Assembly (NCBI GenBank): GCA_001552015.1
Contig: CP010514.1
Coordinates: 540,001 to 572,000 of the forward strand
Length of the DNA stretch: 32,000 bases
Direction of reading: 5' to 3'
Origin: Candidatus Nanopusillus acidilobi
GTDB lineage: Archaea; Nanobdellota; Nanobdellia; Nanobdellales; Nanobdellaceae
Position numbers and translations under genes: made by a program. How positions within the stretch are numbered: the stretch's first letter is position 1; each line of letters starts with the position of its first letter. The notes beneath the pieces were generated by a model. That model was not told the origin of the DNA. It did no database searches and worked only from the letters and a program-made list of their open reading frames with translations. This document shows positions 3,014 through 32,000 of this stretch, piece by piece.

Positions 3014-3613
3014 ATGAGATCTTACTTATATAAAATAATTTTAGGAATTATATCTATATTAATTTTATTTTTTATGCTTTTATTAAATAAAGTAAACTTT
3101 AATAACTATTATGTTTTAAAAAAGACGAATATTACAATAAATAATCAAAATCTATCATTATACTTATTGAATTTATATGGAGAAGGTTGTTATCAATATA
3201 ATATTACAAATGGATATTTTATAATAAAAAATGAAGGACCTGGAATAAATTATATAATACCATTAGTAGAATACATTAATACTACTTCATTTATATTTTG
3301 CAATCAAACATTCTATTATAATATAACAATTGAAGAATGTTTACCAATAAATCCATGCAATATAAAATGCACACCTAGAGAATTATGTCCAATGATAATA
3401 TGCATGGAATATCCATATTGTTCAAATGTAATATATTATATAAATATTACATATCCAATAATAATTGTTAATGATAGTATATTTTTATATAATAATAATG
3501 TTTTTTGTTACTCAGAAAACAATTGTAATATAATTTATCAAATATTACCTAAAAGTTATTTATACAATTTAATATATAATTTAATAAGTTCTATACCAAA
3601 AAATATTGTATGA
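3014..3613 (+). CDS. Membrane-anchored/secreted cysteine-rich protein with many N-glycosylation sequons (hypothetical)
   Basis: 199 aa. It has an N-terminal hydrophobic helix (IILGIISILILFFMLLL), 10 Cys and at least 8 N-x-S/T sequons. Its stop overlaps the next start (ATGA at 3610-3613). Confidence 0.6.
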   Translation: MRSYLYKIILGIISILILFFMLLLNKVNFNNYYVLKKTNITINNQNLSLYLLNLYGEGCYQYNITNGYFIIKNEGPGINYIIPLVEYINTTSFIFCNQTFYYNITIEECLPINPCNIKCTPRELCPMIICMEYPYCSNVIYYINITYPIIIVNDSIFLYNNNVFCYSENNCNIIYQILPKSYLYNLIYNLISSIPKNIV

Positions 3614-4275
3614 AACTTGCAGTATTATATTCTGGAGGAAAAGATTCAAATTATTCATTATATATTGCATCAAAATATCATGAAATATCTGTACTATTAA
3701 ATATAATTCCAAAAAACAATGAAAGTTATTTATATCATTATATTAATAATAATTTAACTGAATTACAATCAAAAGCATTAAATATACCTATAGAAAGATT
3801 TTATATAAATAATGATGAAGAAGAAACATTATTTGAAGCATTAAAATATTTAAAAGAAAAATATAATATTGATGGAATTGTTACTGGAGCAATTAGATCT
3901 ACATATCAGGGATCTAGATTTCAAAGAATATGTAAAAGATTAAATCTATGGTGTTTTAATCCATTATGGTTAAAGGATGAAAAAGAATATTTATATGAAT
4001 TATTAGAAAATAATTTTCAGTTTATAATTGTTGGATGGTATACATATCCTTTAGATATAAATATTTTAGGAAAAATTGTAGATGAAAATATAATAAAAAA
4101 ATTAATTGAATATAAAGAAAAATATAAAATAAATATTGCGGGAGAAGGCGGAGAATATGAAACTTTTGTTTTATATCAACCATTATTTAAGAAAAAAATA
4201 ATAATAAAAGATTATGAAATAAAGGTAGAAAAAAATTATGCAGAATATATTATAAAAAATGCATATTTAAAATGA
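3610..4275 (+). CDS. dph6: Dph6/MJ0570-family PP-loop ATP pyrophosphatase (diphthine-ammonia ligase-like)
   Basis: MKLAVLYSGGKDS PP-loop, GAIRSTYQ..R..ICKRLNL..FNPLW, and GEGGEYETFVL, the hallmark blocks of the COG2102/Dph6 ATP-binding domain. Confidence 0.85.
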   Translation: MKLAVLYSGGKDSNYSLYIASKYHEISVLLNIIPKNNESYLYHYINNNLTELQSKALNIPIERFYINNDEEETLFEALKYLKEKYNIDGIVTGAIRSTYQGSRFQRICKRLNLWCFNPLWLKDEKEYLYELLENNFQFIIVGWYTYPLDINILGKIVDENIIKKLIEYKEKYKINIAGEGGEYETFVLYQPLFKKKIIIKDYEIKVEKNYAEYIIKNAYLK

Positions 4276-4799
4276 TTGGAATAATTCATACAAATAAAGA
4301 AGAACTATCAAAATATGAATTTTTATATCCAATAATAAATATTTTGAAAGAATTAAATATTGATTATAAAGTTCTTTCCTATAAAGATAGAATAAATGAA
4401 TATTTTGAAAAAATAATAATAACTGGTACTGCAATAATGGACTTTGATTATTTAAATTATATAAAAAACTTTGAATTTATAATTGAAAATAATATAAAAA
4501 CCATTGCAATATGTTCTGGAAGTCAAATATTATTAAAATTACTAAATTATGATTTTGAAGATAAAGAATTAATTGGAAAATATTATGTAAAAATAATAAA
4601 TAAAGATAAAATAGTTAATAAAGACTTTGAAGCATATTTTTTAATAACAAAAATTCCAAAGATTAATGAAAAATTTTATATAATTGGAAAGGTTGAAAAT
4701 ATCCCTGTATTGTATAAATATAAAAATATATATTTTTCATTGTTCCATCCAGAAGTTTTAAATAAAGATATAATAATTAATTTTTTAGAATATATATAG
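4272..4799 (+). CDS. Class I glutamine amidotransferase-like protein (GuaA subunit-A-like fold)
   Basis: 175 aa. IIITGT.., nucleophile-elbow-like IAICSGSQILL (compare GICLGHQ) and C-terminal YFSLFHPEV (compare GVQFHPEV, His-Glu of the triad). The start overlaps the dph6 stop (ATGA at 4272-4275). Confidence 0.6.
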   Translation: MIGIIHTNKEELSKYEFLYPIINILKELNIDYKVLSYKDRINEYFEKIIITGTAIMDFDYLNYIKNFEFIIENNIKTIAICSGSQILLKLLNYDFEDKELIGKYYVKIINKDKIVNKDFEAYFLITKIPKINEKFYIIGKVENIPVLYKYKNIYFSLFHPEVLNKDIIINFLEYI

Positions 4800-4800
4800 A

Positions 4801-4855
4801 GCCCCTACTAGGGTAACCTTAGATAGATGAAAAAGGTTGAGTTAGTAGGGGTACA
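4801..4855 (+). ncRNA. Putative H/ACA-box guide sRNA (single hairpin + ACA)
   Basis: GC-rich hairpin in an AT-rich convergent intergenic gap. Lower stem 4802-4810/4843-4851 (9 bp); internal loop GGGT/GAGT; upper stem 4815-4820/4833-4838 (6 bp); 12-nt GA-rich apical loop; ACA at 4853-4855, 14 nt from the upper-stem base. The pocket is complementary to 23S H69 (see findings). Confidence 0.55.
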
Positions 4856-4857
4856 AA

Positions 4858-4905
4858 ATGAAGAAACCGTCCCAGGCTGAAAAATGATGAATTAAAGCTA
4901 ACAGA
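4858..4905 (+). ncRNA. Possible C/D-box-like sRNA module abutting the H/ACA hairpin
   Basis: ATGAAGA (4858-4864, C-like, 1 mismatch) - 12 nt (AACCGTCCCAGG) - CTGA (4877-4880, D') - AAA - ATGATGA (4884-4890, perfect C') - 11 nt - CAGA (4902-4905, D-like, 1 mismatch). Box spacing is canonical for archaeal C/D sRNAs. No target was found in the visible rRNA. Confidence 0.3.
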
Positions 4906-4912
4906 TAAAAAA

Positions 4913-6787
4913 TTATTCTTCAGCTTTTTCCCTTCCTCTTTTACTTCTTCTTCCTGATTCTGATAATACTGCAGCTATTATTATTATTGCTAATACTACC
5001 AATATCAATAATACCAATTCTAATGATGATAATGATATTGAAGGTACTTGATATACTGAATATGTTTCATTTAATGAATATAATACTTTTCCTGTTTGTT
5101 GATCTATTATATTTGCATATACTGTTACATTATTGCTTTCTGCAGTTACATTTAATGGTATTTCCTCACTATATGTTCCTCCTATTTGTATTTCTTGTTG
5201 TTCTGGATATACTTCTCCTCCAACAGCATATGCTTGTATTAATAAATTATATATTGTTGTTGTATTTGAACTTATTACTAAATATATTGTTGTATTCTTT
5301 CCATATTTTAATGGTGTATATCCAATTAATGATGCACTTATTGGTTCTGGTATTATTTGTGTTCCATTTACATATAGATTATATGTATATGTTTGTGATA
5401 TTCCATTATAATTAAATACAAATTCTATTGGATAGTATCCTGCTGTTAAGTTTTCTGGAATATATATTACTACTGGCAATTGTGTTACCTGATTTGGTGA
5501 TAATGTTATTGTTGATAATTGCTGGAATATATTTAATTGTTGTGATTCTATTATTGGTTGTACCTGTATATCCATTGGCAAGTTAGATTCTAAATTTGCA
5601 TATAATTCTATAAATTGTCCTGGTTTTACATTAAATGTATTTGTATATACACTTAATACATTTACTGGTTGTATTCCTTGCTCATTTACTGTTATTGTAT
5701 AATTATATTGATATATCTCTGTTCCATTTTGATATATATATAATATTATCGTATAATATCCTGGATATAACCCTATTGTATTTAATGGTAATATTACTTC
5801 TCCTTGAGAATTTGGAGATATTGTTTGTGAATTTTGTAAATTATATACTAGATCTCCATATTGATCATATACTAACATTTGAACTGTTGCATTTACTGTT
5901 TCATAACCTGGATTTTCCATTAATACTTCTATATTATATATTGAATTAATTAAATTATTCATTAAATTAAAGTTTGGAGATATTGAAATTACCTGTATGT
6001 TTTGTCCATTTTGATTATTTGATATATAGAATGATTGTTCTGTTTGTTGTGTTAATACTTGTCCATTAGATAACACAATATTTAATTGTTCTACTACATA
6101 CATTTGTCCTTGTACATTTTCTAAATAATAGTTTGGTATATTTACTGTTAATAAATTCTCTCCAGATTTTAAATTTACATTTTCTTGTGTTTGATATACA
6201 ATACTTCCTTGTGAATTATATAATGTTAATGTTAATGTAGAAGATTGTATATTTGTTTCAACGTTTTGTAAATATACTACTGATTGTACATTTATTCCAT
6301 ATAATTGTGCTTGCTGTTGTGAAATTACTGATGGTAATTGAATTAATGATAATGTTAAGTTATATGGTACAAATTCTAAATTATATGTTTGGTTTGCTGT
6401 TACATATTCTAAATATGTTGGATATAATAATGATACATATGCTTGAACTGTGAAACCATTGTATTGTACTAAATTCTCCAATTCTAAAGGATTTACTGAT
6501 ACCTGATATATATTTAATCCTGTAGATACTGATATTGGCTCATAATATTGATATATTAATTGCCCGCTTGGTGCATATATATTAAAGTACAAATTTGCTT
6601 CTTCAGGTGTCTGATTTACTCCACATAACTTTACTGTAAATGTTAGATTATTTAATGCATTTGCTAATAATGTTGTTGTTTGTGGTTCTATTATTAATGA
6701 CTGTGAATGTATTCCAAATGCTAATAATACTGCTCCCATTAAAAAACCAAGTAATCTTCTTACTGTTACCACCAAGTTGTTGTTCAT
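4913..6787 (-). CDS. Large cell-surface (S-layer-like) glycoprotein with internal beta-rich repeats and a C-terminal membrane anchor
   Basis: 624 aa. N-terminal signal/anchor (LLGFLMGAVLLAFGIHSQS). Composition is Q/N/T/Y/S/V-rich and nearly free of K/E, unlike the cytosolic proteins here. Many N-x-S/T sequons. Recurring ~100-aa units (e.g. FNIYAPSGQLIYQY.., LTLYNSQGSIVYQT.., QMLVYDQYGDLVYN.., IILYIYQNGTEIYQY..). C-terminal TM (LVLLILVVLAIIIIAAVL) plus a basic tail. Confidence 0.75.
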   Translation of the reverse strand: MNNNLVVTVRRLLGFLMGAVLLAFGIHSQSLIIEPQTTTLLANALNNLTFTVKLCGVNQTPEEANLYFNIYAPSGQLIYQYYEPISVSTGLNIYQVSVNPLELENLVQYNGFTVQAYVSLLYPTYLEYVTANQTYNLEFVPYNLTLSLIQLPSVISQQQAQLYGINVQSVVYLQNVETNIQSSTLTLTLYNSQGSIVYQTQENVNLKSGENLLTVNIPNYYLENVQGQMYVVEQLNIVLSNGQVLTQQTEQSFYISNNQNGQNIQVISISPNFNLMNNLINSIYNIEVLMENPGYETVNATVQMLVYDQYGDLVYNLQNSQTISPNSQGEVILPLNTIGLYPGYYTIILYIYQNGTEIYQYNYTITVNEQGIQPVNVLSVYTNTFNVKPGQFIELYANLESNLPMDIQVQPIIESQQLNIFQQLSTITLSPNQVTQLPVVIYIPENLTAGYYPIEFVFNYNGISQTYTYNLYVNGTQIIPEPISASLIGYTPLKYGKNTTIYLVISSNTTTIYNLLIQAYAVGGEVYPEQQEIQIGGTYSEEIPLNVTAESNNVTVYANIIDQQTGKVLYSLNETYSVYQVPSISLSSLELVLLILVVLAIIIIAAVLSESGRRSKRGREKAEE

Positions 6788-8904: not shown

Positions 8905-9480
8905 ATGGCATTCTATGATACAATTATAACATTGCTGAACAACCTTGGATTCTTTAATGTTATATTACCATTTCTATTAGTTTATGCTATAATGTATGGT
9001 ATATTAAGTAAGTATAAAATACTTGGTGATCCTTTTGCTGAAGGAGATAAAGGAAAAACTACAAGGAGTTTAATATCAATTGTATCTGCAGCTACTGGAT
9101 TTTTTATAGTTGCATCTTCAAATGTTGTATTATCATTAAAAACACTAATTCCATATATAGTATTATTCTTATTAACAGTATTTTTCCTTATATTGGCAAT
9201 TTCTCCATTTTTACAGAAAGAAGAAAAGAGTGGAGAAATACAACTTGGTAATAGAACAAGAACAATATTATTAGTATCTACAATAATTATCTTTACATTA
9301 ATAGTAATATTTATACTTGGCTTATATAATTATATTAATTTATCATTAGCATCTACAGTAATTTCTTCATCACAAACATTTATAGAAACAATAGTAGTTC
9401 TTGCAATAATGTTAGGAATAGCATATTGGGCTGTGAAACCTGAAAAAGGCCAAGGATCAGAACATTCAAAATCAAGATGA
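8905..9480 (+). CDS. Multi-pass membrane protein, paralog 1 of a tandem triplet (unknown family)
   Basis: 191 aa. The N-terminal motif LGFFNVILPFLLVYAIMYGIL is shared with the next two ORFs. It has 4-5 predicted TM helices and a C-terminal ..AYWAVKPEKG tail. Confidence 0.7.
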   Translation: MAFYDTIITLLNNLGFFNVILPFLLVYAIMYGILSKYKILGDPFAEGDKGKTTRSLISIVSAATGFFIVASSNVVLSLKTLIPYIVLFLLTVFFLILAISPFLQKEEKSGEIQLGNRTRTILLVSTIIIFTLIVIFILGLYNYINLSLASTVISSSQTFIETIVVLAIMLGIAYWAVKPEKGQGSEHSKSR

Positions 9481-10106
9481 TAACAAACATAGGTCCATTA
9501 TCACAACAAATTACTTCTATTCAGGTGAATTTTAATCAGATATTATCTCAATTTGGACTCATAGATGTTGTTTTACCATTTTTATTAATATTTTCTTTAG
9601 TATTTATGTTATTAGAATTATCCAATTTATTAAAGACAAGCCCTGATGATGATGTAGGTAGAAAACTAAGTGCTTTATTTGCCTTCGGATTTGCTCTCTT
9701 ATCATTATATAATCAAAATTTAATAAAATGGTTAGTATCTTTTATTCCAAATGCTACTATAGTTATAATTGTATTCTTTTTATTAGCTATTACACTAGCA
9801 CTTACAAATAAAAAGGTACCTGGAGTATTAAGAGCCTTCTTTGCCTTCCTTATTGTAGGAATAATATTATGGCTATCTATAAATTCTTTAAGTATAACAG
9901 GATCTTCTACAAAATCCTCATTAACATATTATTTATTAGGTGAAATTAACTATCTTATGCAATCTGGTACATTATCATCATTGCTTACAGTTTTAATTAT
10001 ATTTATATTCCTAATCTTAGTAATGATGTGGGCAGTTAGTGGCGGAGAAAAGAAAGAAGAGGAGGAAGGAGAAATTAAGGGTCCATTATTAGTAAGATCT
10101 AGATAA
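9477..10106 (+). CDS. Multi-pass membrane protein, paralog 2 of the tandem triplet
   Basis: 209 aa with FGLIDVVLPFLLIFSLVFMLL and a C-terminal ..MMWAVSGGEKKEEEE tail. ATGA overlap with paralog 1. Confidence 0.7.
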   Translation: MITNIGPLSQQITSIQVNFNQILSQFGLIDVVLPFLLIFSLVFMLLELSNLLKTSPDDDVGRKLSALFAFGFALLSLYNQNLIKWLVSFIPNATIVIIVFFLLAITLALTNKKVPGVLRAFFAFLIVGIILWLSINSLSITGSSTKSSLTYYLLGEINYLMQSGTLSSLLTVLIIFIFLILVMMWAVSGGEKKEEEEGEIKGPLLVRSR

Positions 10107-10107
10107 A

Positions 10108-10752
10108 ATGGACATCTCGTCATTTATTTATACTTTATTTTCAGAATATGGTATATTTACATTTTTAGCACCATTTTTATTAGTATTTCCATTATTATAT
10201 GGATCTCTTAGAAAAATTGGTTTATTTGGAAGAGATAACCCTAATAAAGAAAAATTATATGCAGTAATTTCCATAGTAATAACATTTTATTATCTATATG
10301 ATATATCTGCTGTTATATTTACATCAAACTTTATATCATTCTTCTTTTTTGAAATGCTTGTTATATTTTTCATTTTAATGATAATTGCATTAATGGCTGA
10401 TATGTCAGAACCTTATGAAGGAGATGAAGAATTTCAGAAATATAAACAATCTTCTCATAATGTTATTGTCGGACTTATAACTCTTGCTGTTCTATTTGCA
10501 TTCCTATATGCATCTTCAGTAAATTTCAGTGGATTTGGAGAAGCTGCTCAAAATATAATATTAGAAATAATAGTTATATTACTATCTAGTGGTTTACTTC
10601 CAGTTATTGTAATAATAGGAATTTTAATTGGAGTTATATATTGGTTAATTCATAAACCAGGACCTCAAAATAAAAAAGTCAAGGGAAAATACCTTTTCAT
10701 AGCACCTGCAGAAGCTCTATATAATATACCAGAAAATCTAAAAAAGAAATAA
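10108..10752 (+). CDS. Multi-pass membrane protein, paralog 3 of the tandem triplet
   Basis: 214 aa with YGIFTFLAPFLLVFPLLYGSL and a C-terminal ..IYWLIHKPGPQNKK tail. It starts 1 nt after the paralog 2 stop. Confidence 0.7.
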   Translation: MDISSFIYTLFSEYGIFTFLAPFLLVFPLLYGSLRKIGLFGRDNPNKEKLYAVISIVITFYYLYDISAVIFTSNFISFFFFEMLVIFFILMIIALMADMSEPYEGDEEFQKYKQSSHNVIVGLITLAVLFAFLYASSVNFSGFGEAAQNIILEIIVILLSSGLLPVIVIIGILIGVIYWLIHKPGPQNKKVKGKYLFIAPAEALYNIPENLKKK

Positions 10753-11893: not shown

Positions 11894-12493
11894 ATGATAT
11901 TAATACCTGGAGATAGCTTAAAGAAAAAGGATATTAATTCATATGAAAGGGAGAATAATTACTATTCAAAATATATATTATTAGTAAACGAGGATAAAAC
12001 TACAAGGCTTTTTGGATATTATATGCCAGAAGTGAATGATATTGTAATTGGAAAAGTAATTGATGTATTATCTAATGGATGGATAATTGATATAAATTCT
12101 CCATATGTAGGAAAACTATCCTTAAAAGATACTGGAGTAGATCCTAGTGATTTATATACCTATGGTGATTATATATTATGCCAAATTATAAAAATGACAA
12201 AAAATAAATTAATAGATTTAGAGATTAAGAAAAAGGAAAAATTAAATGATGGATTAATATTAAAAGTAGATCCTGCAAGAATTCCAAGATTGATTGGAAA
12301 GAATTCTTCAATGTTAAATTTAATTAAAGAAGATTTAAAGATAGATATAATAATTGGAAAAAATGGTAGAGTATATTTAAATGGCGATATAAATAATGTA
12401 TCAAAGGCAGTAGATATTATCAAATTTGTTATAAATAATTCTTATAAAAGGGGCTTAACTGAAAAGGTTAAAGAAATTTTGGAAAATAAATAA
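11894..12493 (+). CDS. rrp4: Exosome complex RNA-binding subunit Rrp4 (S1 + KH)
   Basis: N-terminal ILIPGDSL, S1 block DIVIGKVIDVLSNGWIIDINSPYVGKLSL, and KH block ARIPRLIGKNSSMLNLIKEDLKIDIIIGKNGRVYL. It lies immediately upstream of rrp41, as in the archaeal exosome operon. Confidence 0.85.
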   Translation: MILIPGDSLKKKDINSYERENNYYSKYILLVNEDKTTRLFGYYMPEVNDIVIGKVIDVLSNGWIIDINSPYVGKLSLKDTGVDPSDLYTYGDYILCQIIKMTKNKLIDLEIKKKEKLNDGLILKVDPARIPRLIGKNSSMLNLIKEDLKIDIIIGKNGRVYLNGDINNVSKAVDIIKFVINNSYKRGLTEKVKEILENK

Positions 12494-12496
12494 GAA

Positions 12497-13252
12497 ATGG
12501 TAAAAAGATTTGATGGCAGGGAATATAATGAAGTAAGAAAAATAAATATAAAGCTAAATGTAGTAGATAATGCAAAAGGATCTGCAATATTTTCATTTGG
12601 TGATACTGTTGCATTAGCTGCTGTATATGGACCAAAACCTTCAAAAATGTCTTTAGATTATGATAAAGCATTCTTAAGGGTTAAATATAATATGCTAACA
12701 TTTTCTACACCTGAAAGAAAGAAACCTACGCCAGGTAGAAGAGAAATTGAATTATCTGAAGCAATTAAGAGAGCATTAGAACCTGCATTATTATTAGAAG
12801 AAATCCCTGGAAGTATTATAGATGTATATATTGAAATATTGAATGCAGATGCTGGAACAAGGACTGCAAGTATAAATGCTGCATCTTTGGCATTATCCTT
12901 AGCAGGTATTCCAATGAAAGATTTGGTAGTAGGCCTAGCAGTTGGAAAGATTGGAGAAAAAATTGTAGCAGATTTAAATAAAGAAGAAGAAGATTATGAT
13001 TCAGAAAAATTAAGGAAAGATCCTGAAAAATCAAAATATATAGAATATTATGGAGAAGGAAGAGCTACAGATATACCAGTTGCTATAATTCCTTCTGAGA
13101 AGAAAATTACTTTAATACAATTAGATGGAGAAATTTCAAATAAAGAATTAAATGATGCATTAAATCTAGCATTAGAAAAAGCTTTAGAAATAAAAGATCT
13201 AATGAAGAATAGTATATTAAAGCATTTATCTTCAGATAATTTTATTTATTAG
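12497..13252 (+). CDS. rrp41: Exosome complex exonuclease Rrp41 (RNase PH domain)
   Basis: RFDGREYNEVRKI..AKGSAIFSFGDTVALAAVYGP, PGRREIELSE, NADAGTRTASINAASLAL. It carries a ~17-aa insertion (DSEKLRKDPEKSKYIEYY) before the ..G.ATDIPVA block relative to the usual Rrp41 layout. Confidence 0.92.
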   Translation: MVKRFDGREYNEVRKINIKLNVVDNAKGSAIFSFGDTVALAAVYGPKPSKMSLDYDKAFLRVKYNMLTFSTPERKKPTPGRREIELSEAIKRALEPALLLEEIPGSIIDVYIEILNADAGTRTASINAASLALSLAGIPMKDLVVGLAVGKIGEKIVADLNKEEEDYDSEKLRKDPEKSKYIEYYGEGRATDIPVAIIPSEKKITLIQLDGEISNKELNDALNLALEKALEIKDLMKNSILKHLSSDNFIY

Positions 13253-13299: not shown

Positions 13300-14559
13300 A
13301 TGAAGAAAAATTATAAATATCTGATGATGTTAATTTTTATTTTAAACTTTACAAATATTTATTCACAATCAAATAGTTATGCTTATGCATGGTATAACGA
13401 ATATATAGGTACATTATATATAGATAAACGATTATTAGAATCGTCTGCTAGTATGCTTTCCCAATATTTAGGCCCTTTAGCACCAATTATTATAACAAAT
13501 TTACCATATTTAGTCTCATTTTTTTCTTTATTTTTTATATTTAAAAGATTCTTAAATATTATTCATGAAGATTTAGGACATAAAAATACTATAATTGCAG
13601 TAATAATATCTGCAATCACTACATATCTCTTTTTGCCTTTTGTTATACCTATATTAATTATTGCATTTATAATAAAAGTATTTAGAATTGGTAAATCTAA
13701 ATTGGAAAGTTTTAAAGAAAACTTAGGCAAGATTAATCCTGGATTAAGGGGTATTTTCTCAAGAGCAACATCAGATATTAGGGATTTTGATAAAAATACA
13801 AATAAAATTCTAAAAGATATAAATAAAATAGATAAAATAATAAATTATCCTCCCATAAGAAACTTATTAAATTCTATAGAAAAAGATATAGAAACTTTAA
13901 ATAATATAATATCCCACATATTAAAAGAAACTGAAAACGAAAAATTAACTCCATATAGATTAAAAGCTTATTTACTAAAATTCAATATGACATATAATAA
14001 TGCTATAAATAAAATCAAACAGTTAAATGGAATAATAAATACTATGTTTAGCAATCCTCCTTTATTAAGAAGGATTGGAAATAGGATATTCAGAACAAAT
14101 AAATTTACACCAAAGTATTTGATGGAATTAAGAAATATACCAAACGACTTGACTGCTAGATTAAATACTACATACAAAGAAGGTCAGAAAATATTCGAAG
14201 ATTTAAATAGATTGTTAATTTCTGCAGAAGCTATTAGTAGGAAATATGGAAGTGAAATAAATAATACTTTAAAAAGAAATCTTAATAATAATGCTCTTTT
14301 ATCTCTAGGTAATAAAGCTCCAATAAGAGAAATACAAAAAATAGAAAACACTACCGCTGCTATTTATAAAGATTGGAGGATATCTCCATTAAAAAAATTG
14401 GAAATATCATCTAAAATGTATAAATCTACAAAAAATTTATCTAAATCTTTACGTAAATTTAAAGGAAATCCAAAAAGATTATTAAACTTGACCGACAAAT
14501 ATTATAAGAAAACAATTAAATCAATTGGAAGTATTTCAAAAACCCCTGAAAAACGTTAA
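13300..14559 (+). CDS. Signal-peptide / 2-3 TM / long basic helical-domain protein (paralog A, unknown function)
   Basis: 419 aa. The signal peptide ends ..FTNIYSQS and TM helices lie around residues 60-130. The rest is a K/N/I-rich, predicted helical/coiled region. Same architecture and size as the ORF at 14822-16102. Confidence 0.7.
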   Translation: MKKNYKYLMMLIFILNFTNIYSQSNSYAYAWYNEYIGTLYIDKRLLESSASMLSQYLGPLAPIIITNLPYLVSFFSLFFIFKRFLNIIHEDLGHKNTIIAVIISAITTYLFLPFVIPILIIAFIIKVFRIGKSKLESFKENLGKINPGLRGIFSRATSDIRDFDKNTNKILKDINKIDKIINYPPIRNLLNSIEKDIETLNNIISHILKETENEKLTPYRLKAYLLKFNMTYNNAINKIKQLNGIINTMFSNPPLLRRIGNRIFRTNKFTPKYLMELRNIPNDLTARLNTTYKEGQKIFEDLNRLLISAEAISRKYGSEINNTLKRNLNNNALLSLGNKAPIREIQKIENTTAAIYKDWRISPLKKLEISSKMYKSTKNLSKSLRKFKGNPKRLLNLTDKYYKKTIKSIGSISKTPEKR

Positions 14560-14601
14560 TTAGAGCTAATTTACCAATCTTTCTAAACCTAGAAAAATAT
14601 G

Positions 14602-14666
14602 AAATTCAAATAAAGAATTAAACGATCATTAAATCTAGAATTAGAAAAAGCTATAGAAATAAATTA
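14602..14666 (+). pseudogene. Relic copy of the 3' end of rrp41 (non-coding fragment)
   Basis: 14605-14663 matches 13135-13194 (rrp41 codons ..SNKELNDALNLALEKALEIK) with 3 substitutions and a 1-nt deletion (about 93% identity). Weaker similarity extends on both sides (~13100-13225 vs ~14570-14695). The deletion breaks the frame. Confidence 0.8.
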
Positions 14667-14790
14667 AATTATGAAAGAAACAAACTTAAATACATATAAA
14701 GTCGGTGCTTTATAACTTTTTATTTAATTATTTAATATTTTTTATTTAATTTTTCTATATTTTCTCTCCTTTGTTATAAATTATAAAAAA

Positions 14791-14798
14791 TTTATAAA
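14791..14798 (+). promoter_or_regulatory. TATA box (TTTATAAA) for the 14822 gene
   Basis: Centred ~27 nt upstream of the ATG at 14822. Confidence 0.45.
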
Positions 14799-14821
14799 TT
14801 TCAACAAATTTTTATAACTAA

Positions 14822-16102
14822 ATGAAAGGTATAAATAATATTAATAAGAAGCTATTAATAACTATATTTACTTTTTTATTTCTAATAAGGTTTATATATT
14901 CACAATATCCGACAGGAATATCTCCACAGAATAATGCGGTTAGTAGTTTAGAATCAAATTCTATTATTCAATGGATTATTACATCTTCAACTAATGGTTA
15001 TTCAACTGTAGCTCGATATTTAGCTAATTTTATATCTATTAAGGGAATACCAATCTATGTTTGGTCTATTATAACATTTTTAATGGCTACTTTATTCTTT
15101 ATTGCAATATATATATATCTCTTTGAAATATTTACACAAAGAACTGGAATATCCGAAAGCGAAACAATGAAAAAAGCAAAGATATTGCTTATATTTGCCT
15201 TAAGTGTATTTTCTGCAATAGCAATAGGTTTTGCCATACCATTTTTATTTAATCTTTATGGATTTATTTTATTGATACTTTTATTAATAGCTTTATTTTT
15301 CTTTGGAAGAGCTGCAGTTTCTTATGGAAAAGGCTTTCATTATGCAGCTAAATCATTTGCAGCCAATGTAGAAAAAGATTTATTAGAAGTAGAAAGAGAA
15401 TTAAAAGAAGCAAGAAAAAATCTTTCTGAACAAGATGTAAGATATCTAGAAGAAGGAATAGAAAAAGTTAATAGTATTTATAATGAAGTAAGAAAAGATT
15501 TTAATAATGCAGAGACGAAATTTCAAAATATTTTATCTCATTTAGAACTTGCATACAAAGCATTTATTACTAATTTCATAAATAGATGCGAAGCATACTT
15601 TAACCAACAACATCTTTCACGCAATCAAAGGAAGGAAAAAGCTAAATTTATTAGAGACTTAGCAGAAAAAAGAGATAGAATGAATCGCCAAAAGATATTA
15701 AATACCAAAAAATCACCAAAAGATCTTTATAATGAGATACTAAGTGAGATTGGTAATCTTTATTATCTTAAAAGTTATGAATCAGAATTAAGAAAGCTAC
15801 TGCATATTAGCTATATATTTATTTTTCATTCTTCACAGAGTCCACATACTCGAATATTTAGAGATATACAAGATACAATAAATGAATATGAAAAAGCAAG
15901 AAACTCACTAATGAGATTTTATGGATTTGAAAATGGATTTAAAAGAGATATTAACGTAAGATTTAGGTATTTTTTCAGTGCTCCTGATAATAGAAAATAT
16001 GATATTGGTATATTATCTGCATTAGATAAATCAAAAAATTCGATAGATAGAATAGAAAAAATAATTAATGAAAGAATACAATTTTTAAAGCATCTTCTTT
16101 AA
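14822..16102 (+). CDS. Signal-peptide / 3 TM / long helical-domain protein (paralog B, unknown function)
   Basis: 426 aa. The signal peptide ends ..LIRFIYSQY and there are three TM helices. The remainder is a long charged helical region (..EKDLLEVERELKEARKNLSEQDVRYLEEGIEKV..). Confidence 0.7.
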   Translation: MKGINNINKKLLITIFTFLFLIRFIYSQYPTGISPQNNAVSSLESNSIIQWIITSSTNGYSTVARYLANFISIKGIPIYVWSIITFLMATLFFIAIYIYLFEIFTQRTGISESETMKKAKILLIFALSVFSAIAIGFAIPFLFNLYGFILLILLLIALFFFGRAAVSYGKGFHYAAKSFAANVEKDLLEVERELKEARKNLSEQDVRYLEEGIEKVNSIYNEVRKDFNNAETKFQNILSHLELAYKAFITNFINRCEAYFNQQHLSRNQRKEKAKFIRDLAEKRDRMNRQKILNTKKSPKDLYNEILSEIGNLYYLKSYESELRKLLHISYIFIFHSSQSPHTRIFRDIQDTINEYEKARNSLMRFYGFENGFKRDINVRFRYFFSAPDNRKYDIGILSALDKSKNSIDRIEKIINERIQFLKHLL

Positions 16103-21750: not shown

Positions 21751-21867
21751 ATGAGGAGAAGTTCAAGAAGATGGAAAAAATACTTAAGATCTAGATGGAA
21801 ATGGCAGAGAAGAAGAATTAGAGAAGAAAAAAGACTAAGAAAAATAGCTAGAATGAGAGCTTTATAA
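21751..21867 (+). CDS. rpl41e: Ribosomal protein L41e (eL41), not in the ORF track
   Basis: 38 aa: MRRSSRRWKKYLRSRWKWQRRRIREEKRLRKIARMRAL. It is extremely basic with the RWKW..RRI pattern typical of archaeal L41e. A TATA-like TTTAAAAATATTA lies ~26 nt upstream. Confidence 0.7.
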   Translation: MRRSSRRWKKYLRSRWKWQRRRIREEKRLRKIARMRAL

Positions 21868-21910: not shown

Positions 21911-21945
21911 GCCATGTACATCATATGGTATATGATGTACATGGC
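21911..21945. repeat. Perfect 16-bp inverted repeat with a 3-nt spacer, just upstream of the 16S processing stem
   Basis: GCCATGTACATCATAT-GGT-ATATGATGTACATGGC. Every position 21911-21926 pairs with 21945-21930. It lies downstream of two TATA-like boxes (21861-21868, 21877-21886) and 24 nt upstream of the processing-stem strand. Confidence 0.9.
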
Positions 21946-21968
21946 ACATATGTAGAGATTATCTGAAA

Positions 21969-21988
21969 GGGGATAACTGCAGCGGAAT
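21969..21988 (+). other. 5' strand of the pre-16S rRNA processing stem
   Basis: GGGGAT-AAC-TGCAGCGGAAT pairs with ATTCCGCTGCA-ATCCCC at 23527-23543 (11 + 6 bp with a 3-nt bulge), bracketing the 16S gene as in archaeal pre-rRNA. Confidence 0.7.
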
Positions 21989-22033
21989 CTGCGGCCGTAC
22001 TTTTCGGGCTAGGCCCGCGGCGGAATCCGCCGA

Positions 22034-23525
<1,492 letters not shown>

Positions 23526-23526
23526 A

Positions 23527-23543
23527 ATTCCGCTGCAATCCCC
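23527..23543 (+). other. 3' strand of the pre-16S rRNA processing stem
   Basis: Complementary to 21969-21988 (see that feature). Confidence 0.7.
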
Positions 23544-23572
23544 AAATAAAATTTTCTTATATTATAAAAATA

Positions 23573-29464: not shown

Positions 29465-32000
29465 AATATATAGTCTCACGGGAACTTCAAGCGGTCGGCT
29501 GAACTCCTTTTCGGAGCTTACACCGCCGCTCTGAGTCGGATCTTTTATCCGACCCCTTAACGGCTGCCTATTTTTGAGGAGGGCTTCACCCTTAGATGCT
29601 TTCAGGGCTTATCCCCTAGGGCGTAGCTACCGGGCATGCCCTTCACGGACAGCCCGTATACCAGAGGCCCCGGCCCACCGTTCCTTTCGTACTAGGTGGA
29701 CCTTCCCCTCAGGCAGCCAGCACTTCCGACAGTTATAACCGAACTGCCTCGCGGCGTTCTGAACCCATCTCACGATCCCCTTTAATGGGTGGACACCCCC
29801 ACCCTTGGCGGCTTCTGCACCACCAGGATGGGGAGAGACGACATCGATGTCGCAAACCGCGGGGTCAATGGGGGCTCTCGCCCGCGACGGCGCTGTTACC
29901 CCCGGAGTAGCTTTTCCGCCAGCCCGTACCCCCACTAGGGAGAGTACGGGGTTCGCTAGGCCCGGGTTTCCCCCCTGTGCCCCTTGATGGTCAGGGCACA
30001 GTCAAGCCAGCTTTTGGCCTTGTCCTCTACGGCGGATTCCTGACCCGCCTGAGCTGACCTTATGGACCCTGCCGATACCTTTTCGGCAGGGTGCCGCCCC
30101 AGCCAAACCGCCCACCTGCTGCTGTCCCCCTTCGGGTTAGCCCTGAAGAACCTAGAGGCGGGTGTTTCATCGTCGCATCCTTCCTACCTAGCGGCAGGAA
30201 TTCATTGCTCCCCGCTACCCTACACACCAGGTTCTTCAGAGCAACAACAGGCTACGGTTAAGCTTCACGGGGTCCTTCTTACCCATCGGAAGTCCCTGGC
30301 CTTCTCACCAGGATAGCTTTTCAGGGGGCGCCGGCCCGGGACAGTGACGGGCTAGTTACGTCGTTCGCAGAGCCAGCATTTAACTGGCAAGGCATTACGC
30401 TACCTTAAGAGGGTCAGAGTTACCCCCGCCGTTTACCGGTCCTTACCCCCCTTGAACGGGGGATTCAGATACCGGTGCTGAGCAGACGTCACCCCCAGTA
30501 CAAACCCTTTCGGGCTTGCTGGGAGCTATGTTTTTGGTAAACAGTCCGCCCGCCCTTGTCACTGCGACCTGCGGTCCACACCGCAGGCATCCCTTCTCCC
30601 GAAGTTACGGGACCAATTTGCCAAGTTCCCTAGACCGGCTTGACCCCCACGGCCTTAGGCTGCTCACCCAGGGGACCTATTCTGGACTTCGGTACGATCG
30701 CCCCGAATCGCATCCTTTCCCTTTTCATTGCCGGAAGGCCTCAGCATAACCCTTTCGGGCCCATCAGGGTTTAGACCGGTTCTCGCCATGACGGCACTCC
30801 CCGGTCTTATCCCCCTTAGCACAGTAAGTGGGTTTTACCCCACCCCCGTGTATGCCTAGCCTTCCAGGTCGGGAAAGGATGTTGCGTTACCGCATCTATC
30901 GGGGCGGTAGGGGAATATTAACCCCTTTCCCTTTCTCCAGACTCCTCTCGGAGCCTGGATTAGGATCGACTAACCCCAGGCTGATCTTCATTGCCTGGGA
31001 AACCTTTCCCCCTTCGGCCGACGGGATTCTCACCCGTCTGATTCTTACTACCGCGGGGATCTGCATTCCCAACGGCTCCAGGCTTCCTTTCGGGAACCCT
31101 TCTAGGCCATCGGGACGCCCGCCTACCTCACGCTGGCAATGCCAGCGGACCGAGGTCTCGGCGGCTGGCTTAGACCCGTCCGTTTTCGGAGCCTATCCCC
31201 TCGTCGGGTGAGTTGTTACACACTCCTTAGATGATAGCCACTATTAGGCCCACATCCCCGATGTCTTAGGGGACAGACTCCTTCAACGTCGTTCAGCCAG
31301 CACTTTGGGGCCTTAACCTCGGTCTCGGTTGTTCCCGTCTCGGAATTGCGGCTTTCCCGCAATTCCCGTTTCCCGGGCTACGGACCCTATGGCTTCGGAG
31401 TTGGACTCCATACGGAAACCCGTACAGAATCCGTCTCTCTACACCATAGGGATCCTAACCCGAGACCTGGCTAGGGTCAGTTTCGGCGGGGACCGGCTAT
31501 GACCGGGCCCGAGTGGCTTTTCACCTCTACCCCGAGGTCATGAGAGAGGTAAGCCCCACCTCTTCGGGCCTCCACGGGAAACCCCGCTTCGCCCTGCCCC
31601 GGGATAGATCGCCCGGTTTCCGGTCATACCCGAGTGACTAAACCGCCCTTATGGGACGGTGCCCCTCACCTGGAAACCAGGTTACGGGCTTTCGGTTTCC
31701 CTATGGCTTCGGTATAAACCTTAACCTCGCCACTCGGGTATACTCCCCCGCAAGTTCTTCAAAACTCACGGTAGAACTAGCTAGCACCTTATCTGGTACT
31801 CACCCGTCACCAGATTTTCCCAGATAAGGTGCTTAACTAGCCCTACCAGACAATCCCCGCCCGGTTTCAGGCTCTTTTCACCCCCTACCAAGGGTTCTTT
31901 TCACCTTTCGGTCGCCCTACTAATACGCTATCGGACTCGGAAAGTATTTAGCCTTGGTGACTAGTTTCCCCCAAATTCCCGACGGAAATTCAACCGCCGG
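29465..32000 (-). rRNA. rrl: 23S (LSU) rRNA, 3' ~2.5 kb (the 5' end lies beyond the window)
   Basis: The minus strand contains CUGAAAGCAUCUAAG (revcomp of 29593-29607), the sarcin-ricin loop region (29680-29693), PTC segments (GGGGGUAACAG.., GAUGUCG.., UGGGUUCAGAACG..CAGUUCGG), and H69-H71 (..GUAACUCUGACCCUCUUAAGGUAGCG..). The 3' end is estimated from alignment to ..CCGUGAGGCUUAACCUU. Confidence 0.95.

Follow-up and report, generated by a model that had tools for sequence, protein, structure and literature searches.

A conserved hairpin of Candidatus Nanopusillus acidilobi as a probable H/ACA guide RNA for the helix 69 loop of 23S rRNA

Introduction

In some archaea, uridines in the loop of helix 69 of the 23S ribosomal RNA (rRNA) are converted to pseudouridine (psi) under the guidance of H/ACA small RNAs (sRNAs). 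Motif 3 of Pyrococcus abyssi Pab40, the counterpart of motif 3 of Pyrococcus furiosus Pf7, guides psi2016 of this loop and is active in vitro with aCbf5-aNop10-L7Ae, and in Haloferax volcanii the SL2 part of sR-h45 guides psi1940 and psi1942, the equivalents of Escherichia coli 1915 and 1917, in a reaction that depends on Cbf5 in vivo. Here we analyze a stretch of 32,000 nucleotides from Candidatus Nanopusillus acidilobi (contig CP010514.1, positions 540,001 to 572,000), called the window in what follows, and describe an element at its positions 4801-4855. This element is probably a single-hairpin archaeal H/ACA guide sRNA, of the type that carries an apical kink-loop (K-loop), for the helix 69 uridine equivalent to E. 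coli U1917.

Like Pab40 motif 3, the window RNA follows the hairpin-pocket-hairpin-ACA plan and is predicted to target the conserved uridine of the helix 69 loop. Unlike Pab40, which is a three-hairpin sRNA, it is a single hairpin with a much smaller pocket, and an Rfam scan at E<=10 gives no sign of a sequence relation between the two. The helix 69 loop, here as a prediction, is also what it shares with sR-h45 SL2. On the other hand, sR-h45 is a double hairpin with kink-turns (K-turns) that leaves UNUN unpaired and modifies two uridines at distances of 17 and 19 nt from the ACA, whereas the window guide would pair with the U1915 equivalent, so that only the U1917 equivalent is predicted to be modified, at a canonical distance of about 15 nt. 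The standard configuration with an unpaired UN, as predicted here, is that of yeast snR191 and human U19, which guide two conserved helix 69 pseudouridines; these are two-hairpin snoRNAs without K-turns, and they use Nhp2 instead of L7Ae. Guidance of this site in eukaryotes, to which the initial annotation of the hairpin had appealed, is thus published for both yeast and human.

Only one H/ACA sRNA had previously been described in Nanoarchaeota, an abundant 159-nt RNA of Nanoarchaeum equitans with a TTTAAA box A promoter of its own. It is a double hairpin with internal K-turns, and its predicted targets are U234 and U796 of 16S rRNA and U614 of 23S rRNA.

Results

A stable hairpin with a conserved K-loop

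The hairpin fold is far more stable than expected by chance. Its minimum free energy (MFE) is -23.7 kcal/mol, which corresponds to z = -4.5 to -4.95, and equal stability was reached by 0-1 of 200 shuffled sequences. The MFE structure contains the arrangement of stem, internal loop and stem that the initial annotation had read from the letters, and on re-reading the sequence every coordinate it had assigned to stems, loop, pocket and ACA is correct (Table 1). The lower stem has 9 bp in the window and 8-10 bp across the orthologs described below, and 7 bp would be left if two A-U pairs opened; published archaeal H/ACA lower stems have 7-9 bp, and one search descriptor asks for at least 7 bp. From the base of the upper stem to the ACA there are 14 nt (4839-4852), as annotated, and this spacing is kept in every ortholog despite insertions and deletions on the 5' side. 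The published range is 14-16 nt.

The 12-nt GA-rich apical loop had been put forward as a possible K-loop. Across orthologs it has the consensus N-G-A-U-(2-3 nt)-A-U-G-A-A directly on top of a 6-bp upper stem; the G, A and U bases of the motif (GA...UGA) never vary, and changes are confined to the middle of the loop and the 3n positions. Read in this way, N.A, G.A and A.G would stack above the six upper-stem pairs, so that the distal G.A takes the 9th position above the pocket. In the window type the 3' A-run is longer by one A, which would put the distal G.A at 9 or 10. In published archaeal H/ACA RNAs, 5-6 bp separate the pocket from the K-turn or K-loop, and the distal G.A stands at 9-10 positions, or 8-11 overall. 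Judged from its bases, then, this is a conserved K-loop whose distance from the pocket is canonical, and L7Ae would be expected to bind it.

The internal loop of GGGT and GAGT lies where it had been placed; the fully open 4+4 pocket that it seemed to form does not hold for the free RNA. In the MFE structure of the window sequence at 37 C its outer bases form G.U pairs, G4811-U4842 and U4814-G4839, so that the free-RNA pocket is just 2x2 nt. To call the hairpin a textbook example was therefore an overstatement, the pocket being minimal. Nominal lengths of the 5' and 3' pocket strands are 4/4 in the window, 5/4 in strain YN1 and locus L002, 5/4-5 in Nanobdella, and 6/5 in loci L007 and L008, where the pocket is larger because a G.A stands at the top of the lower stem.

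The GC content of the hairpin is 43.6%, against 23.5% in the background. It is not the only GC-rich island outside the rRNA genes, as had been stated: several coding stretches reach 45-51%, and the 16S leader, the most GC-rich non-rRNA stretch of the window, reaches 69%. A scan with Rfam returned only the rRNAs at the gathering threshold, and even at E<=10 no H/ACA family was found in the region of the hairpin, in agreement with its description as an unannotated H/ACA RNA.

The element is conserved, with covariation, in the Nanopusillaceae lineages recovered

Homologues of the upstream open reading frame (ORF) led to syntenic loci in five sources, namely strain YN1, one Nanopusillaceae genome bin, Nanobdella aerobiophila and two metagenome contigs, and in all five the element directly follows the stop codon of that ORF. 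The pattern AGGGT-N7-GAT-N1-6-TGAA-N6-7-GAGT-N9-TACA was then scanned over 185,579 species, one genome each. It matched nine Nanopusillaceae loci, three bacterial loci and nothing else. The bacterial matches are stemless, fold no better than shuffled sequences and are attributed to chance. Among the Nanopusillaceae matches, L017 represents an additional lineage with further variation. In all, eight distinct orthologous sequences were collected from Nanopusillus, Nanobdella, strain YN1 and three other Nanopusillaceae lineages (two genome bins and two metagenome contigs), and the element was found, at the equivalent locus, in every Nanopusillaceae lineage recovered.

A metagenome scan with a fixed 6-nt gap gave no matches; a second one gave Nanopusillus-type microvariants and about five structureless chance matches, with no deeper divergence. 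At L005 and L006, which hold remoter homologues of the upstream gene, synteny is lost and the element is absent, and covariance model R1 was negative there as well. The H/ACA sRNA of N. equitans gave no match in the pattern scan, and its pockets are unrelated.

All seven orthologs that were folded share the hairpin architecture, which the three bacterial chance matches do not. Counting each sequence at each pair as one cell, pairing is retained in 97.5% of cells over the eight sequences, and both sides have changed at four pairs (C-G/U-A twice, A-U/G-C and A-U/U-A). Three pairs of the lower stem show such two-sided changes; the closing pair of the upper stem occurs as A-U, G.U and U-A, and as A.A in Nanobdella. 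The covariation score was reached by none of 500 column shuffles, and when the 3' partners were slid by 1-3 columns as a control, pairing fell to about 38-58.5%. The stems proposed from a single sequence are thus conserved in relatives, with compensating changes. The sole non-pairs are G.A atop the lower stem in L007 and L008 and, in Nanobdella, A.A at the foot of the upper stem; both flank the pocket. The pocket strands AGGGU and GAGU are invariant across orthologs, and so is GGGGUACA, which contains the ACA. In the window type, a deletion of one nucleotide in the 5' strand shifts the stem register.

A single complementary site in 16S and 23S rRNA

In an H/ACA guide the 3' pocket strand pairs on the 5' side of the target, and the 5' strand pairs on the 3' side of the unpaired UN. 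As the initial annotation had it, the 23S gene lies on the minus strand and reads ACUC-UG-ACCC at 30420-30411, with 30416 as the unpaired U. The sequence ACTCTNACCC occurs once in the whole window, both strands considered, with 0.09 occurrences expected. By a position-for-position alignment with the helix 69 sequence of E. coli, position 30416 corresponds to U1917, in agreement with the equivalence first proposed.

We scanned every U of the window 16S and partial 23S rRNA, and of the complete 16S and 23S rRNA of YN1, for sites with at least 8 contiguous pairs and at least 3 in each arm. A single site lies above this threshold in the window and YN1 rRNAs, GGUAACUC-UG-ACCCUCUU in helix 69, the sequence of which is identical in YN1 and the window. 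The arms (3' + 5') are 6+5 in the window, which recovers the extension of UAACUC and ACCCU suggested at the outset, 6+5 in YN1, 6+6 in Nanobdella and 4+6 in L007. Look-ups of the exact protein gave no record for the GATase-like ORF of the window or for the FlaI homologue of Nanobdella, and helix 69 was read from the window and YN1. Guide and target share an invariant core of 4+4 Watson-Crick pairs, and 10-12 bp with the extension. The window match comprises 11 contiguous Watson-Crick pairs; with random pockets of equal composition, scored on Watson-Crick pairs only, a match of 8 bp or more turns up in 1.2% of trials and one of 11 bp or more in 0.06%. Energies calculated for the pseudo-guide duplex range from -14.2 to -17.8 kcal/mol, with about -14.3 in the window; the 4+4 core alone gives -10.7. 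Archaeal rRNAs carry very few pseudouridines. We place the match above coincidence because its site is H/ACA-guided in P. abyssi, H. volcanii, yeast and human.

In the mechanism that we propose, L7Ae would bind the apical K-loop, Cbf5 would bind the lower stem and the ACA through its PUA domain, and Nop10 would bridge the two proteins. The internal loop would then open as the pseudouridylation pocket. The prediction is that its 3' strand, GAGU(UA), pairs with A1913-C1916 of 23S rRNA and, when extended, as far as U1911, and that (A)GGGU, the 5' strand, pairs with A1919-C1922 and, when extended, as far as U1923. U1917-G1918 would then stay unpaired where the upper stem begins, some 15 nt away from the ACA. 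Cbf5 would there isomerize U1917 (30416) to pseudouridine.

A C/D box sRNA directly follows the hairpin

The hairpin lies in a gap of 113 nt between convergent ORFs. Upstream, ORF 4272-4799 is a weak GATase-like gene, and the hairpin starts 2 nt past its stop codon; the other flanking ORF encodes a surface-type protein of 624 amino acids and ends at 4913. Within this gap there is a second RNA, overlooked in the initial annotation. A C/D box sRNA begins 2-3 nt past the ACA in every ortholog, and its boxes are conserved across all orthologs, in order and within about 50 nt in total. Position 5 of the C box, which departs from the consensus RUGAUGA, covaries with position 2 of the D box, the other non-consensus position, AUGAGGA occurring with CUGA and AUGAAGA with CAGA. 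Just downstream of the hairpin, Rfam at E<=10 gave weak, sub-threshold matches to seven archaeal C/D families.

In YN1, L002, L007 and L008 the D guide is complementary to UGUCGUCUCUCCC of 23S rRNA over 9-11 Watson-Crick bp. This site lies near the peptidyl-transferase centre, at 29831-29843 (-) in the window and at 2556-2568 of the YN1 23S rRNA (L010), and by our own alignment we take it to be about E. coli 2505-2515. C/D guides direct methylation at the fifth position upstream of D or D', and extra spacer bases put the predicted site of L002 and L008 one nucleotide away from that of YN1. In the window and in L017 the D guide has decayed to AT-rich sequence without an rRNA match. The D' guide core ACCGUCCCAG is conserved, and no target for it was found in 16S rRNA, 23S rRNA or the loci of the relatives. 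Its complement, CUGGGAC, resembles the anticodon loop of tRNA-Pro(GGG); neither the window nor the loci of the relatives contain a tRNA gene.

The motif GTTTTAAATAAA, 40-47 nt upstream of the hairpin, is identical in eight of eight orthologs, and in most of them it overlaps the upstream gene at its HPEVLNK codons. L017, which has no GATase-like gene, keeps the motif in non-coding DNA, at about 3260-3271 (-). Promoters of N. equitans sRNAs and tRNAs have TTTAAA 26 nt upstream of the start. These features suggest that GTTTTAAATAAA is a box A/TATA promoter, which the genomes other than L017 carry within the 3' part of the upstream gene. Given that the motif is conserved, that it persists without the GATase gene in L017 and that it resembles the TTTAAA box A, the unit is probably transcribed on its own, the hairpin together with the C/D sRNA.

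C/D sRNAs placed beside a structured RNA with almost no spacer are known from the dicistronic tRNA-C/D sRNA units of N. equitans and the polycistronic C/D sRNAs of Pyrobaculum. In the window, unlike in those units, the partner is an H/ACA hairpin, and in the literature that we searched no H/ACA-C/D tandem is described for archaea.

Table 1. Positions of the hairpin, its predicted target and the neighbouring elements in the window
Feature	Sequence	Position	Strand	Remarks
Whole element	GCCCCUACUA-GGGU-AACCUU-AGAUAGAUGAAA-AAGGUU-GAGU-UAGUAGGGG-U-ACA	4801-4855	+	
Lower stem P1, 5' strand	DNA CCCCTACTA, RNA CCCCUACUA	4802-4810	+	pairs with 4843-4851
5' pocket strand	GGGU (GGGT)	4811-4814	+	AGGGU with A4810; complements 23S ACCC(U), E. 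coli 1919-1923
Upper stem P2, 5' strand	AACCUU (AACCTT)	4815-4820	+	pairs with 4833-4838
Apical loop, 12 nt, candidate K-loop	DNA AGATAGATGAAA, RNA AGAUAGAUGAAA	4821-4832	+	proposed tandem sheared pairs G4822.A4830 and A4823.G4829
Upper stem, 3' strand	AAGGUU (AAGGTT)	4833-4838	+	pairs with 4815-4820
3' pocket strand	GAGU (GAGT)	4839-4842	+	complements 23S ACUC (1913-1916); GAGUUA/UAACUC if two lower-stem pairs open
Lower stem, 3' strand	DNA TAGTAGGGG, RNA UAGUAGGGG	4843-4851	+	from sequence, MFE and ortholog comparison
ACA box	ACA	4853-4855	+	preceded by T4852; 14 nt (4839-4852) from upper stem
Candidate promoter, archaeal TATA/box A	GTTTTAAATAAA	4755-4766	+	40-47 nt upstream of hairpin
C/D box sRNA		4857-4905	+	
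C box	AAUGAAGA (AUGAAGA)	4857-4864	+	
D' guide, 12 nt	core ACCGUCCCAG	4865-4876	+	core conserved in all orthologs
D' box	CUGA	4877-4880	+	followed by 3 nt
C' box	AUGAUGA	4884-4890	+	
D guide, 11 nt		4891-4901	+	
D box	CAGA	4902-4905	+	
Helix 69 of 23S rRNA	GGGGGUAACUCUGACCCUC	30409-30427	-	predicted target U at 30416

Protein partners

We take arCOG00987 to be the TruB/Cbf5 family and arCOG00906 to be the Nop10 family, by their older COG names. Neither the window nor the loci of the relatives hold a gene for Cbf5, Nop10, Gar1 or L7Ae, as judged by searches that included tblastn with sequences of these four proteins. For N. acidilobi, the published table of genes and proteome (PMC4935971, supplementary file 2) has Nps_01225, a 'Pseudouridine synthase' of arCOG00987 that was detected in the proteome; a Zn-ribbon RNA-binding protein of arCOG00906 beside aIF2-alpha; Nps_02695 as L7Ae; and a Nop56 homologue and fibrillarin. 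Of the H/ACA proteins that the initial annotation expected in the genome, the table thus has a synthase of the Cbf5 type, a protein of the Nop10 type and L7Ae, and Gar1 was not found by name.

rRNA genes and other features of the window

Rfam places an archaeal 16S gene at 22034-23527 (+) and the 23S gene at 29466-32000 (-), the 5' end of the latter being cut by the window edge. The two genes are unlinked; they occupy opposite strands, and the roughly 6 kb between them contains protein genes (tRNA-guanine transglycosylase-like, S19 and T2SS-F/E-like). The same is seen in YN1 (L010). A FlaI-like ATPase gene adjoins the 23S gene, and its product shares 98% identity with proteins of Ca. Nanopusillus acidilobi, Nanopusillus sp. 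and Nanobsidianus stetteri. Complementary sequences flank the 16S gene, a leader at 21970-22033 and a trailer at 23528-23545 (+), GGGGAUAACUGCAGCGGAAU and AUUCCGCUGCAAUCCCC, which presumably form a pre-rRNA processing stem. Just upstream of the leader there is a near-perfect, hairpin-forming inverted repeat, GCCAUGUACAUCAUAUGGUAUAUGAUGUACAUGGC (21911-21946, +). Also just upstream of the leader, a 38-codon ORF at 21751-21867 (+) encodes the very basic peptide MRRSSRRWKKYLRSRWKWQRRRIREEKRLRKIARMRAL, without a match in Pfam; the ORF may be spurious or may specify a small protein of ribosomal type.

Elsewhere, at 11894-13252 (+), exosome genes stand side by side after a CBS-domain gene, one of them Rrp4-like with S1/KH and the other with an RNase PH domain; several of the ORFs around them (8905-10752 and 13300-16102) have no Pfam match. 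In YN1, L010 contains at 12259-12493 (-) an archaeal RNase P RNA, with 85.5 bits against an Rfam gathering threshold of 84. N. equitans is reported to be without RNase P.

Discussion

A question remains, how firmly can the hairpin be assigned to the H/ACA class and to helix 69? Several observations weigh against this assignment. The shape of the hairpin carries little of it: a permissive home-made H/ACA descriptor, applied to the window and to random AT-rich sequence, finds 0.5 matches per 28 kb of the random sequence and two in the window, so that the hairpin shape alone is not significant. The second match in the window, 6297-6371 (+), is AT-rich, lies antisense inside ORF 4913-6787 and fits the chance rate. 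It is stability, conservation and target, rather than shape, that constitute the weight of evidence. The pocket predicted for the free RNA is small, nominally 4+4 nt but with just 2x2 nt open at 37 C, or about 3x3 nt when folded at 80 C, nanoarchaeotes of the Nanopusillus type growing at 80-85 C. A published H/ACA search descriptor has 5-11 nt per pocket strand, a range that only some orthologs attain, or that is attained if terminal A-U pairs breathe. Likewise, the longer pairing with helix 69 needs the top one or two lower-stem pairs, A-U or G.U, to be opened. Just eight guide-target pairs are invariant, which equals the published minimum for guided pseudouridylation of 8 bp; one natural guide has 3+5 pairs. 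The duplex energy of the window, about -14.3 kcal/mol, is marginal against a cut-off of -16 kcal/mol used elsewhere with a different energy model. When G.U pairs are allowed, random pockets reach at least 8 pairs in 19-27% of trials and at least 11 in 6%.

The comparative evidence has its own limits. All orthologs come from one family with a mean column identity of 85%, and consequently represent few independent events, and the invariance of the nine pocket bases would by itself arise by chance in about 7% of cases, as estimated from the fraction of invariant columns. The single known H/ACA sRNA of N. equitans has an unrelated sequence, and helix 69 is not among its predicted targets. Gar1 has no entry by name in the N. 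acidilobi table (PMC4935971). The identities of Cbf5 and Nop10 rest on older COG names, and the assignment as a whole is a prediction from sequence.

The main rival explanation takes the hairpin as a structured 5' domain of the C/D sRNA transcript, in which an extra L7Ae-binding K-loop would serve stability, processing or assembly of the ribonucleoprotein (RNP) and the helix 69 match would be fortuitous. It has in its favour that the C box stands 2-3 nt past the ACA in every ortholog and that the C/D RNA is without an obvious terminal stem, and it would account for a very small pocket and for a match of a kind that, with G.U pairs, 19-27% of random pockets make to some rRNA site at 8 pairs or more. 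We nevertheless consider it unlikely, given what it leaves unexplained: an invariant ACA at exactly 14 nt, a K-loop at the distance specific to H/ACA RNAs, and a lone all-Watson-Crick match (P ~0.0006-0.012) that falls on one of the very few uridines for which H/ACA guidance is known in other archaea. Moreover, the mismatches in L007 and L008 (G.A) and in Nanobdella (A.A) widen the pocket and leave the stems intact. Somewhat less probable still is a genuine H/ACA RNA that serves another substrate, such as a tRNA, 5S rRNA or other RNA, or that acts at helix 69 as a chaperone of rRNA folding without catalysis. Our target scan covered 16S and 23S rRNA, with no tRNA gene in the window or the loci of the relatives, and according to published experience many H/ACA targets predicted by computation do not stand up to experiment; yet helix 69 is the sole fitting site in 16S and 23S rRNA for all ortholog pockets tested, and elsewhere it is a known guided pseudouridine.

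That the hairpin begins 2 nt past the stop codon of ORF 4272-4799 would also suit a structure at the 3' end of the upstream mRNA, of a diphthamide-synthase/GATase operon, acting as a terminator or stabilizer. Archaeal transcription terminates at oligo-T tracts, not at hairpins, and a T-stretch terminator has been noted in N. equitans. Furthermore, the K-loop, the ACA and the conserved pocket would have no place in such a structure. We reject the terminator reading since L017, which is without the GATase gene, keeps the hairpin, the TTTAAA motif and the C/D RNA, and we regard any mRNA 3' structure as very improbable here. An H/ACA guide for the U1917 equivalent of helix 69 is the reading that we hold to be probable.

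Eukaryotic small Cajal body-specific RNAs (scaRNAs) unite both guide classes in one molecule, and the tandem invites the comparison. The H/ACA hairpin and the C/D sRNA might remain joined as a chimeric guide of about 105 nt with three L7Ae sites, like eukaryotic composite scaRNAs; we hold this idea to be doubtful, though worth stating. ScaRNAs have been stated to be absent from archaea. If such a chimera existed, then in lineages of the YN1 type it would bring Cbf5 to helix 69 in domain IV and fibrillarin to the peptidyl-transferase region in domain V of one nascent 23S rRNA. Regardless, the junction of 2-3 nt between the H/ACA and C/D elements raises the question of how two RNPs form on it or stay linked.

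What we describe is a new guide RNA of a well-known class, the unusual traits of which, a minimal pocket and direct adjacency to a C/D guide, are mild. It adds to the annotation of this clade an RNA family that is outside Rfam, and its eight invariant pairs would make it a natural example at the lower limit reported for H/ACA RNPs. The prediction is exact, naming both the RNA and the uridine, and concerns organisms that can be co-cultured, N. acidilobi and Nanobdella aerobiophila. The helix 69 pseudouridine is among the very few rRNA modifications common to all three domains. If our reading is true, its RNA-guided formation extends to the Nanopusillaceae, and genomes of about 0.6-0.8 Mb would still retain a dedicated guide RNA for one uridine.

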